In this document: piece after piece, positions 1 through 46,219 of the stretch
How positions within the stretch are numbered: the stretch's first letter is position 1
How the letters are laid out: each line of letters starts with the position of its first letter
Origin: Thermoplasmata archaeon
GTDB lineage: Archaea > Thermoplasmatota > E2 > JACPAO01 > JAHFTW01
Direction: 5' to 3'
NCBI GenBank assembly: GCA_034667725.1
Contig: JAXDQS010000002.1
Span: forward strand, 64,001-128,000
DNA length: 64,000 nucleotides
The notes under the pieces: generated by a model
Database searches by the model: none
The model's input: only the letters and a program-made list of their open reading frames with translations
Told to the model about the DNA's origin: nothing
Translations under genes and position numbers: made by a program

Positions 1-402
1 TCCCGCCTTGAACACTGCCAGCCCGACGCGAAGCGAGGGCTGGCGGGAGTGACGGGCGGCAAGATTTCCCTTGGCTTCTAAGCGAGCAGCAGAATCCGCA
101 GCCGAACGCTTGCCGCCTCGGCCCACTGCGCCGGTCGTCCACGCGAAGCTTCCGTGAGGACTTGCCTGAGCCGTTCACCCTGCGGCCCCCTTGCTTCTAG
201 CCGAACTGGGAACATGCCCCGCCCTCCCGGCCGCGGGGCCCTGGCCCGCCGCGCAAAGCATCCCCCGACTTGCCGCGACCGCCCCGCATATCTTCCACTC
301 GACTAGAACATGTCCACGTTCCTCCTGTAGAAAGCGCCCGGCGGACGGGCGTGTGCACCGTCCACAACGCTTTCAAGCGCACCTTGGAGTCGGCCGCCCG
401 CG

Positions 403-14591: not shown

Positions 14592-15234
14592 CGCCTTGCA
14601 AGGGGTCCCGTTCGCCGAGCTGGCCGAGGCGCACGGCATCGCCTGGACCGACGAGGCCGCCAAGCGGAAAGGACTCACCGGCCGCATCAGCCAAGCCTGC
14701 CTGGGCGTCCCGGAAAGCCCGGACGAGGAGCCCGACATCCAGGACTACCGCATCGAGCTCAAGGCGTTCCCCGTGAGCGTCGGCCTCAAAGTGCAGGAGA
14801 ACGTCAAGATCCGCACCGTCACCCCCGCCCACGTGCGGACCCAGGTCTGGCCCGAGTCCAGCGTCTTCCGGAAGATGCGGACGGTCCTGTTCATGCCGGT
14901 CGTGAAGCCGGACAAGGCCGACCCGGGGCCGTGGCATTTCCGCAGCCCGTTCATCTGGATGCCCTCCGTGGCCGACGAGCGCCAGATTCAAGCCGACTAC
15001 GAGGCCGTGCGCGCCCTGGTGCTGGCCGGCACCCCCGACCTCGTCTCGTCGGCCGAGCCTCCCGAAGGCCAAGGGACCTACCTCATCGCGAACACCGCCG
15101 GCCGGGACGCCTCCGACCTCACCAACTATGGCACCGAAGCCCAGCCCGTCCTGGGCAAGCGGCGGGCCTGGATGCTCCGCAAGGCGTTCATGCAGAGCCT
15201 GGTCGAGGAGCACGTCCGGTATCGGGCACCTTAG
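14530..15234 (+). CDS. MutH/Sau3AI-family endonuclease (single domain)
   Basis: KGLTG..., PDIQDYRIELK (D...ELK), 'IQADYE', 'KRRAWMLRKAF'; start inferred (TTG 14530 or GTG 14557). Confidence 0.82.
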   Translation: MKPGPVPAAVRRFRDLLARADALQGVPFAELAEAHGIAWTDEAAKRKGLTGRISQACLGVPESPDEEPDIQDYRIELKAFPVSVGLKVQENVKIRTVTPAHVRTQVWPESSVFRKMRTVLFMPVVKPDKADPGPWHFRSPFIWMPSVADERQIQADYEAVRALVLAGTPDLVSSAEPPEGQGTYLIANTAGRDASDLTNYGTEAQPVLGKRRAWMLRKAFMQSLVEEHVRYRAP

Positions 15235-15317
15235 CGCCGGCGCCAGGATTTGAACCTGGAAGGGCGTGGCCCGGCGGTTTTCAAGACCGCTGCCATACCG
15301 GATTAGGCGACGCCGGC
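15235..15317 (-). tRNA. tRNA-Ser(UGA), CCA not encoded
   Basis: Minus strand GCCGGCG acceptor stem; anticodon arm GCGGT-CTTGAAA-ACCGC; long variable arm; T-arm CCAGG-TTCAAAT-CCTGG; G discriminator. Confidence 0.95.
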
Positions 15318-15366
15318 TTCGGGCTGGCGACACGCCGCCGCCACTTGAGCCAAGCGTTCAAGGATT

Positions 15367-15427
15367 GGAGGGCTGAGCGCAGCGAAGCCCTCCGGACCGC
15401 GGGCGACCCGCGGGGCGCAGCCCCCGG
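15367..15427. repeat. REP-like multi-hairpin element, copy A
   Basis: Hairpin GGAGGGCT-GAGCGCAGCGA-AGCCCTCC, then a 30-bp core (15398-15427) identical to 46154-46183. Confidence 0.85.
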
Positions 15428-15513
15428 CTGCCATACCGGATTAGGCGACGCCGGCTTCGCTCCAGCGACCCAGGGCGGCCACTTGAGGCAAGCGTTCCAA
15501 GGATCGGGAGGGC
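15427..15513 (-). repeat. Diverged duplicate of the tRNA-Ser 5' end and its promoter
   Basis: 15427-15459 identical to 15289-15321 (33 bp); similarity resumes over the promoter (CCACTTGAGnCAAGCGTT...GGAGGGC). Confidence 0.9.
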
Positions 15514-18720: not shown

Positions 18721-19464
18721 TTGACGACTGCCCCACCTCCTGCTGCGAGCCGCCCGAAGCCCCCCGTGCTGGAGCCCGTCCAGCGGCTGCCGAGTCGGCG
18801 CGTGCCCCAAGACGCCAACGGCGCCGTCGTGCCGCCCCCGCCCCGCGCCGCCCGCCGCCCGTTCATCAACCTGTGCGGTGACTACCGCTTCCTGCGCGCC
18901 GGCTACTGGGCCTTGGTGGACGCCGAGCTCAACGGCGTGGAGTCGTCGCCGACCCCCATCCAGGCCGCCACCGCCCAGAACGCCGCCGCCTGCCTGCTGG
19001 TGGCGCAGAACTCCGGCATCGAGACGGTGAAGTGGACCGTCGCCCGCAAGCCGCAGGACATCGAGGTCCCGAGCCTGCTGGTCCCGGTCTCCGGCCTCAC
19101 GGATCGCTGCTACGAAGTCAAGTCGACCCGCAGCCGGGCGGCCCAGTGGCGCAGCGCGACCCAGAACGGCACCCGCCCCGCCTTGGCCGTCCAGCTGGAA
19201 GGCGAGCTGCGGAGCCTGCGCATGATCGTCGGCGTCACGGCGCACGAGAACTTCCACCTCGCCTGGGACGTCTGGCGCTCGTTCGGCATCCCGCTTGCGG
19301 AGATCTGGTACGTCGAGGCCGGCGACCCGGACGGGCCGGAAGGCTCCCGTCCGCTGTTCTTGGGCATGGACCCGCTGCCGCTGCACGAACTGACCGAGCG
19401 CGAGCTGCGCCTCTACGAGGAAGTCGCCCAGCGCCCGATGGAAGGCCCGTACGGAGGCCACTGA
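18721..19464 (+). CDS. RimK-like ATP-grasp N-terminal (RLAN) domain protein
   Basis: INLCGDYRFLRAGYWALVDAELNG resembles the RLAN pattern (NLC.sY.Y...GYY.SL.AE.RG); lies directly upstream of an ATP-grasp gene. Confidence 0.75.
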   Translation: MTTAPPPAASRPKPPVLEPVQRLPSRRVPQDANGAVVPPPPRAARRPFINLCGDYRFLRAGYWALVDAELNGVESSPTPIQAATAQNAAACLLVAQNSGIETVKWTVARKPQDIEVPSLLVPVSGLTDRCYEVKSTRSRAAQWRSATQNGTRPALAVQLEGELRSLRMIVGVTAHENFHLAWDVWRSFGIPLAEIWYVEAGDPDGPEGSRPLFLGMDPLPLHELTERELRLYEEVAQRPMEGPYGGH

Positions 19465-19579
19465 ATGGCCCGCGTCGCCAGCATGCGGGGCTCTGCGCGC
19501 CCCGCAAGCATGTCCGGCTGCGCGCGGGGCGCCACGGACCCAGCGGCACCCGAGGTGCGCTGAATGGCCCGCGTCGCCA
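19461..19579. repeat. 20-bp direct repeat (stop/start junction) flanking a 79-bp hairpin-rich insert
   Basis: CTGAATGGCCCGCGTCGCCA at 19461-19480 and 19560-19579. Confidence 0.9.
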
Positions 19580-45290: not shown

Positions 45291-46109
45291 TTGGAGACAG
45301 AACGGCGCGAGCCCCAGCTCCTCGACCTGCCCATGGTCAAGCAGGGCCGCGCCGACCGCCTGAAGGCCGCCGGCATCGACACCGTGGACAAGCTGTGGAA
45401 GGCCGACCTGGGCAAGCTGGCGGCCGACCCGGCGTTCGCCACCGACGACGGCCTCCTGGGGCAGCTCCCTCTCCTGCAAGGCTACGCCGAGGCGCACGCC
45501 AAGGGCGCCGCCATCGTGTACGCGGCCGACGAGCGGCTGTTCCAGCTCAAGGAGCCCGTGCTGCACCTCGACCTGGAGTTCGACGGCCCCGCCTCCGAGA
45601 TTTTCCTGTGGGGCTACCTCGACCACGCGACCGGGCGCATCGAGCAGCACTTCGACCACACCCGCCACGGCCAAGAGCGCCTGCTGCGCGAGTTCCAGCA
45701 GCGCTGCCGCGACATCGACCCCACCGTCGTGACCTGGGGCGGCACCTCCAGCGACCTGGTGCAGCTGCGCCGCGCCTGCGACAAATACAAGATGGACACG
45801 GCGTGGATCCGCAAGGTCCGTTGGCTGGACTTGCAGACCCAGGTGGTCTACACGGGCAACCCAGAGACCCAGCGCATCTACCTGCCCGTCCGGAACTTCA
45901 GCAGCGACACGGTGGCCAAGCACTTCGGCTACGAGAAGCCCCGGCTGCGCATCAAGGACGGCTTCGCGGCGCTCAAGATCTACCAGGCGTACAAGCGCGC
46001 GCCCCGGGAAGGCATCAAGCGCGACCTGTGCGAGTACAACGCCGAGGACATCAAGCACACCAAGCTGATCTTGGACGGCGTGCGCGAGTTGATGCGGCCG
46101 CTGATCTAA
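45291..46109 (+). CDS. RNase H-like (YprB/TM0106-type) nuclease with N-terminal HhH-like segment
   Basis: LPMVKQGRADRLKAAGI; HLDLE; WLDL; YNAEDI; TTG start inferred. Confidence 0.82.
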   Translation: METERREPQLLDLPMVKQGRADRLKAAGIDTVDKLWKADLGKLAADPAFATDDGLLGQLPLLQGYAEAHAKGAAIVYAADERLFQLKEPVLHLDLEFDGPASEIFLWGYLDHATGRIEQHFDHTRHGQERLLREFQQRCRDIDPTVVTWGGTSSDLVQLRRACDKYKMDTAWIRKVRWLDLQTQVVYTGNPETQRIYLPVRNFSSDTVAKHFGYEKPRLRIKDGFAALKIYQAYKRAPREGIKRDLCEYNAEDIKHTKLILDGVRELMRPLI

Positions 46110-46121
46110 GACGGCAGTGAT

Positions 46122-46183
46122 GGCCCCCCGAGCGCAGCGAGCGGGGGCCCTAGCGCGGGCGACCCGCGGGGCGCAGCCCCCGG
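46122..46183. repeat. REP-like multi-hairpin element, copy B
   Basis: GGCCCCCC-GAGCGCAGCGAGC-GGGGGCC hairpin plus the 30-bp core identical to 15398-15427. Confidence 0.85.
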
Positions 46184-46219
46184 GATGGCGTCCGGGAACT
46201 GATGCGGCCGCTGATGTGA
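46184..46219 (+). repeat. Synonymously diverged duplicate of the last 12 codons of the upstream nuclease gene
   Basis: Encodes DGVRELMRPLM* versus DGVRELMRPLI* at 46074-46109; 7 of 36 nt differ. Confidence 0.9.

Follow-up and report, generated by a model that had tools for sequence, protein, structure and literature searches.

The window, the whole 64,000-nucleotide stretch of DNA analysed here, contains a putative nuclease gene that is followed by a short gene-less cassette and then by a second, slightly different copy of the gene's own 3' end. How does a gene come to have two unlike ends, separated by an element that encodes nothing? The initial annotation of this DNA proposed that the element had brought a homologous gene end from another strain and displaced the resident end. 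The proposal is examined here at the focal locus, elsewhere in the source genome (G000, about 71% GC) and in the other genomes compared (G004, G005 and so on). Judging from archaeal markers and the names of homologues, the source is probably a member of the Thermoplasmatota.

Two gene ends around a cassette

The features of the locus are listed in Table 1. The start of the host gene may lie up to about 50 nt farther upstream than position 45333. The gene matches TIGR03491 below the cut-off of that family, and orthologues are present in 29 of the 31 other genomes of the organism's family.

Copy A encodes DGVRELMRPLI and copy B DGVRELMRPLM, each followed by a stop codon. An exact recount agrees with the initial annotation: the copies differ at exactly 7 of 36 nucleotides, six of the differences being silent (including TAA/TGA) and the seventh changing I to M. 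Compared with the synonymous-site share of these codons, this proportion of silent changes has p=0.0017. The spacer between the copies is 74 nt long and cannot hold a nuclease gene, so the element is indeed too small to encode an enzyme, as had been stated.

Table 1. Features of the focal locus, other units in the window and duplication-free repeats of the source genome. Window positions unless a contig of G000 is named.
Feature	Position	Strand	Remarks
End of a three-copy array behind the gene that ends just before the window	1..128	+	Contains the reverse complement of the arm start
tRNA-Ser, hit by the cassette at 15289..15513	15234-15317	-	
Related cassette, 30-nt core identical	15289..15513	+	Duplicates the tRNA-Ser 5' end and promoter
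Third unit, gene-start replacement	19461..19579	-	Exact 20-nt stop/start-overlap duplication around a minus-strand hairpin cassette
Host gene, RNase_H_2 / RecB-like putative nuclease	45333..46109	+	258 aa; PF13482, E 5e-14
Copy A, working gene end	46074..46109	+	In frame with the gene; putative element-borne arm from 46079 (Y-class signature)
Gene-less cassette	46110..46188	+	Conserved from 46113
Hairpin X	46122..46149	+	Variable GC stem, conserved GA-GC-GCA-GC-GA cap; GNA triloop, likely tandem G.A pairs
Middle hairpin	46154..46168	+	Predicted fold, 3-nt loop; common to four genome copies
Hairpin Y	46168..46180	+	5-bp G/C stem, GNA triloop; 3' landmark of the element
Element tail, ends GG	46181..46188	+	Putative 3' junction 46188/46189, matching target position 46078/46079
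Copy B, non-translated second gene end	46184..46219	+	Putative displaced resident end from 46189
Duplication-free GNA-hairpin repeats, G000	C1:4700, 203101, 207991; C6:11129; C5:182233		
Duplication-free GNA-hairpin repeats, G000	C10:4857, 22788, 109099, 127968, 138272, 296694, 457937		

Empty and otherwise filled sites in relatives

Comparison with orthologues, suggested earlier as a check, did reveal empty sites. The sister species (85% nucleotide identity, gene order kept) has one gene end, which is followed directly by the intergenic DNA found behind copy B here, and 17 of the 19 readable family orthologues of the host gene lack the duplication. In G005 this gene end is occupied by a different, independent cassette, which lies between synonymous ends that form a 63-nt pair of their own.

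The same comparison was expected to show which of the two copies matches the relatives, and it does not do so. The sister allele differs from the focal copies at 5 and 7 positions; being about equally far from both, it gives no pointer to the foreign copy. Codon usage shows no asymmetry between the copies (35 vs 30), and an AT shift or a less host-like composition of copy A, suggested by single cases, had no overall support. Both copies encode RPL(I/M/V), a tail specific to the species group, and therefore any donor must have been a close relative. No case of the same arm-plus-cassette unit in two species was caught, and searches including a JGI scan found no circles, strain-level alleles or polymorphic strains. 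The proposal of a foreign end that displaced the resident one is partly supported, by the coding evolution of both copies, the empty sister site, the recurrent layout of the units and the co-variation in the secY-type class (below); the distances and codon usage at the focal locus do not tell which copy would be foreign.

The cassette as a probable single-strand structure

The cassettes appear to fold as single-stranded DNA. The stem of hairpin X varies in sequence, and across 13 family members 85 of its 91 pairs are Watson-Crick, compared with 56 in partner shuffles; most of the exceptions are G.T pairs, which are workable on this strand only. Hairpin Y is found in 26 genome copies (2 for the reversed control), and all four bases occur at the N of its loop. 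The GNA triloop is a stable DNA structure, and the four loop bases fit it. The middle hairpin can form in place of hairpin Y's outer stem. The counts of C-GNA-G mini-hairpins on the two strands are 114 and 4, in a sample of units whose detection itself partly used these motifs. The folding energy of the spacer alone is ordinary for its GC content (z=0.49) and hence uninformative, so that the evidence for structure is the covariation and the strand bias. The earlier description of a multi-hairpin element is borne out by these two and not by an unusual folding energy. The cassette has no match in Rfam.

Read in cassette orientation, 29 of the 33 units have the working copy upstream, the antisense tRNA-Ser start among them, and two have it on the other side. 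Gene starts and promoters are replaced from the antisense strand in two units of the window (15289-15513 and 19461-19579), showing that the unit is not a copy of a host transcript.

Several other repeats were seen alongside the units. A 120-200-nt GNA-hairpin repeat family occupies 12 sites in G000, all intergenic and without gene-end duplication (Table 1). A second, unrelated tandem repeat family has a period of about 115 nt and a recurring CACAGA-rich motif (G000 C10:118900-149400 and 394500-394800). At G000 C2:2473-3677 two tandem glutamine-amidotransferase-like paralogues are each followed by the same 37-nt hairpin stretch. Several small contigs of the source genome (C14-C26), one carrying a transposase-like ORF, look bacterial and probably represent contamination of the bin. 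G156, from another family of the phylum, has 178 copies of hairpin Y, many of which form REPIN-like inverted pairs 50-130 nt apart (for example L315-L321).

Distribution of the units

The arrangement of a gene end, a cassette and a second gene end recurs throughout the genome. In a genome-wide comparison, a downstream copy with a score of at least 40 was found for 29 gene ends, whereas a control with shuffled partners gave 2. Curation gave 33 units in the source genome, 8 at tRNAs and 25 at protein genes. The targets include secY, the DNA polymerase II small subunit, aCPSF1 and NusA. The arms, that is the duplicated ends, are 15-95 nt long, and the periods are 72-249 nt. Units are present across the genus and the family; secY units were found in 11 of 29 genomes sampled.

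In 24 coding units (21 from the source genome and 3 from relatives, units from related genomes not being fully independent) the copies differ at 80 synonymous and 15 non-synonymous nucleotides (p about 1e-35), corresponding to pS 0.36, pN 0.02 and pN/pS of about 0.06. The silent bias over these units implies that both copies were coding at some time, in agreement with the earlier conclusion for the focal pair. Some older downstream copies show decay.

A genome search with the 30-mer core, also proposed earlier, gave a mixed answer: related cassettes at other genes share the layout with its duplications, whereas solo copies of the core exist without duplication. Near-identical cassettes occur at unrelated genes, and the focal cassette is 97% identical over 70 nt to the one behind the DNA polymerase II small-subunit gene (contig C9). 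The exact core has no match in other GTDB genomes, and the cassette patterns have none in viral contigs, plasmids or a JGI scan.

Some targets carry arrays, in which several synonymous ends are stacked, each with its own, different cassette. Behind secY (G000 C5:1-330 and C8:7330-7850; L342, L341) there are at least four synonymous ends that use all three stop codons, and this array interrupts the assembly. The tRNA-Ser gene is a favoured target within the genus: G004, G006, G008, G011 and G012 all carry cassettes at its 5' or 3' end. Behind tRNA-Ser in G004 (L252, contig C31) lies a tandem array with a third layout, in which the 16 nt that immediately precede the arm start are repeated in direct orientation within the cassette. 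In two species (L073 in G005 and L300 in G009) independent cassettes have duplicated the start of one and the same gene, which seems to encode an ABCE1-like ATPase.

Junctions of the focal class

The two copies diverge in a graded way behind hairpin Y. The mismatch is about 70% at positions 1-4, 30-43% at positions 5-12 and 10% or less from position 15. At positions 8-12 an A upstream is paired with a G downstream in 17 of 30 units and the reverse is found in 1, a count that includes six later-fetched, held-out units. These profiles suggest that the element ends 8-10 nt behind hairpin Y with a G, and that the target would be cut after (G)A or (G)G. A purine preference is evident at the junction; a four-base rule was not seen.

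At the focal locus, the first five nucleotides of copy B (46184-46188) would accordingly be read as element tail, in which case the true arms differ at 6 positions, 5 of them silent. The mobile unit would then span 46079-46188, about 110 nt. An internal complement to the arm is present in 2 of 30 units of this class, which is the chance level, and a long guide in the focal class was rejected on this ground.

Arm and cassette in the secY-type class

A sister class of units, without hairpin Y and typified by secY, does carry such a complement. In 23 of its 35 units an internal segment of 10-15 nt, mostly 45-60 nt from the 3' end of the cassette, is complementary to the first bases of the arm. 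Of the 18 cases in which the two copies differ, 15 have a complement that matches the upstream copy (p=0.008, with units not fully independent), and at secY the complement follows synonymous changes across several species. Arm and cassette evolve together in this class, and copy A is tied to the cassette there.

Search for a mobilising enzyme

The initial annotation called for a search for an HUH/RAYT (Y1) nuclease flanked by the same hairpins. None was found, either for Y1 (PF01797) in the 32 family genomes, which are 65-94% complete (6 of 14 control genomes matched), or for RAYT (NF047646) in G000, in which RT and DUF559 were not found either. Y1 transposase was not detected in the hairpin-Y-rich G156. 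The profile PF04986 matched no control genome and is uninformative. No cassette-linked gene came from PF01797 (own genome, family and repeat-rich genomes), NF047646, PF00078, PF04480, PF01541 or PF00589.

The one GIY-YIG match in G000 lies in a long frame and is probably UvrC, and the small GIY-YIG genes of the family have no cassettes nearby. The one PF00589 integrase match in G000 is beside tRNA-Pro and unrelated to the units, and 30 integrase loci in the family are without cassettes. A scan of G000 for the HUH motif and low-GC islands gave no candidate. The neighbours of hairpin Y (131 bacterial ORFs) are ordinary genes, and the ORFs between paired repeats in G156, G066, G086 and G017 look ordinary. 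Among about 60 units no enzyme-bearing version was seen. The GNA-hairpin module links the units to intergenic repeats that abound in bacteria, and for these repeats, too, the search gave no mobilising enzyme.

Proposed mechanism and alternatives

We propose that the unit, a gene-end copy together with its hairpin cassette, moves as folded single-stranded DNA between close lineages, inserts at the homologous site and displaces the resident end, the enzyme being encoded elsewhere. This reading is given a probability of about 0.58. GNA-hairpin cassettes, of which solo copies are observed, would land alone in intergenic DNA, often behind genes. Excision would cut 8-10 nt behind hairpin Y, and a second cut inside the gene end, at a comparable (G)A or (G)G site lying 25-95 nt upstream, would capture the arm. 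Upon reaching a related lineage, the unit would insert at the homologous site of an empty allele, where the arm would restore the reading frame, tRNA end or promoter while the resident end is pushed downstream. Repeated rounds of this process would build the observed arrays of synonymous ends. In the secY-type class the internal complement, by pairing with the arm start, could keep the ends joined and direct the unit to its cognate target. For the focal class, the likeliest route to the target would be pairing by the arm itself. Copy A of the focal locus would, by this mechanism, be of foreign origin.

A more far-reaching form of the proposal is that the units are a widespread class of protein-less, DNA-guided homing elements. 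The arm, with the internal 10-15-nt complement in one class, would specify an essential-gene end; the enzyme would fall outside the tested Y1, Y2, RT, GIY-YIG and integrase families; and gene ends and promoters would be exchanged continually between related lineages. We advance this extension tentatively and consider it somewhat doubtful.

The best-surviving alternative does without dedicated targeting. A REP-like repeat might insert with a long target duplication and spread passively, while ordinary homologous recombination with relatives swaps the gene body and copy A, with copy B as the downstream arm. Allelic exchange needs no enzyme, both copies come from the same species group, and intergenic copies of hairpin Y are common in many bacteria, very few of them accompanied by gene-end duplications. 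The graded homology behind hairpin Y fits variable crossovers, and a homologous crossover with a drifting 5' arm would give a similar gradient. Passive exchange nevertheless leaves three observations unexplained: the A-to-G signature at a fixed distance, the internal complement that tracks copy A at synonymous sites, and the stacked arrays with a different cassette for each end. Moreover, the focal cassette is nearly identical to one at another gene, while the focal arms differ by 19%. Such a passive origin is judged unlikely.

Another reading, rather improbable, sees the units as what is left of larger integrative or homing elements after collapse: an integrase or nuclease gene would have been lost, and an attL arm would remain together with the ends of the element and the displaced gene end. 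The anatomy is that of tRNA and gene-end islands and of the WHO and mitochondrial mobile-ORF elements (PMC7282813, PMC3630166), and eight units do lie at tRNAs. Deletion remnants do not account for the tight range of periods, for near-identical cassettes at unrelated genes, or for the lack of any enzyme-bearing version and of cassettes at the family's integrase and small GIY-YIG loci.

A process like that of diversity-generating retroelements, in which copy B would serve as the template for error-prone rewriting of the gene end, is very improbable. Gene end, GNA-loop hairpin and second copy superficially resemble VR, hairpin and TR. However, copy B has an A at only 13 of 131 differing sites, the changes are silent and not diversifying, the genome has no detected RT, and tRNAs and promoters are also targets. 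Least probable of all, and close to negligible, is an assembly chimera of two strains: the source is a metagenome-assembled genome with a few contaminant small contigs, but the 20.8-kb locus is identical base for base in a second assembly (possibly of the same sample), the same anatomy recurs in about 20 independently assembled genomes, and a chimera would not put a structured cassette between the copies.

Relation to known systems

Tyrosine-integrase islands insert in tRNA and gene ends through attP, regenerate the target end and leave a displaced copy. The units share with them targets in the tRNA T-arm and tandem arrays and, by the proposed mechanism, would also share the regenerated end and the displaced copy behind the element. 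They differ in having neither integrase nor cargo and in their single-strand hairpin architecture. The comparison with attP-like replacement made in the initial annotation is only partly apt, the sampled tyrosine-integrase loci being without cassettes.

The WHO homing elements at FBA1 in Torulaspora and Lachancea encode an endonuclease, bring their own gene 3' end and displace the native one (PMC7282813), and mobile ORFs of fungal mitochondria likewise encode endonucleases and are associated with carboxy-terminal duplications (PMC3630166). Both supply their own copy of a gene 3' end, displace the native end and form arrays by repeated rounds (PMC7282813, PMC3630166), as the units would by the proposed mechanism. 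The anatomy and the silent divergence of the units agree with such a replacement, and an element origin of copy A has support in the secY-type class but not at the focal locus. The WHO elements and mobile ORFs rely on a double-strand break made in a single target gene (PMC7282813, PMC3630166), whereas the cassette units are 70-250 nt long, encode nothing, occupy dozens of genes and replace gene starts also.

The build of the cassettes is closer to that of IS200/IS605 elements and the gene-less PATEs (PMC6006769, PMC3119063), in which the hairpins are likewise subterminal and specific to one strand, the junction lies a short and fixed way from a hairpin, and the element end resembles the target; one cassette class also recalls them in its guide-like pairing. 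PATEs neither duplicate their target nor carry the end of a host gene (PMC6006769, PMC3119063), in contrast to the 15-95-nt arms of the units, which are read as captured arms and not as a true target duplication. The IS200/IS605 guide is 4 nt long, compared with a target-specific pairing segment of 10-15 nt here, and the 32 family genomes yielded no Y1.

REP/REPIN sequences with RAYT (PMC8266576) and the Ssn/NTS system (PMC11893778) are similar in being short, intergenic single-strand hairpins in many copies, and hairpin Y is itself arranged in REPIN-like inverted pairs in G156. REPs, however, do not replace gene ends (PMC8266576), and the cassettes have neither the GTAG (GT(A/G)G) foot in the alignment nor a repeat-flanked RAYT. 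Unlike Ssn/NTS, they have no single-domain GIY-YIG gene flanked by the repeat. The units thus resemble WHO elements and mobile ORFs in outcome, and IS200/IS605, PATE and REP in build, and differ from each in a defining feature. A literature search, with most subscription journals outside its coverage, found no published description of gene-end-replacing hairpin cassettes, in line with the initial annotation, which did not recognise it as a described system.

If the units move as proposed, a gene-less element of about 100 bases can live at the ends of essential genes (secY, the DNA polymerase II subunit, aCPSF1, NusA and tRNAs) because it provides the end or promoter that they would otherwise lack. 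This would be an unrecognised route by which gene termini are swapped between lineages. The internal complement, in its co-variation with the arm, points to a natural form of DNA-guided insertion whose targets are long and specific, and the enzyme responsible would be of interest for genome engineering.
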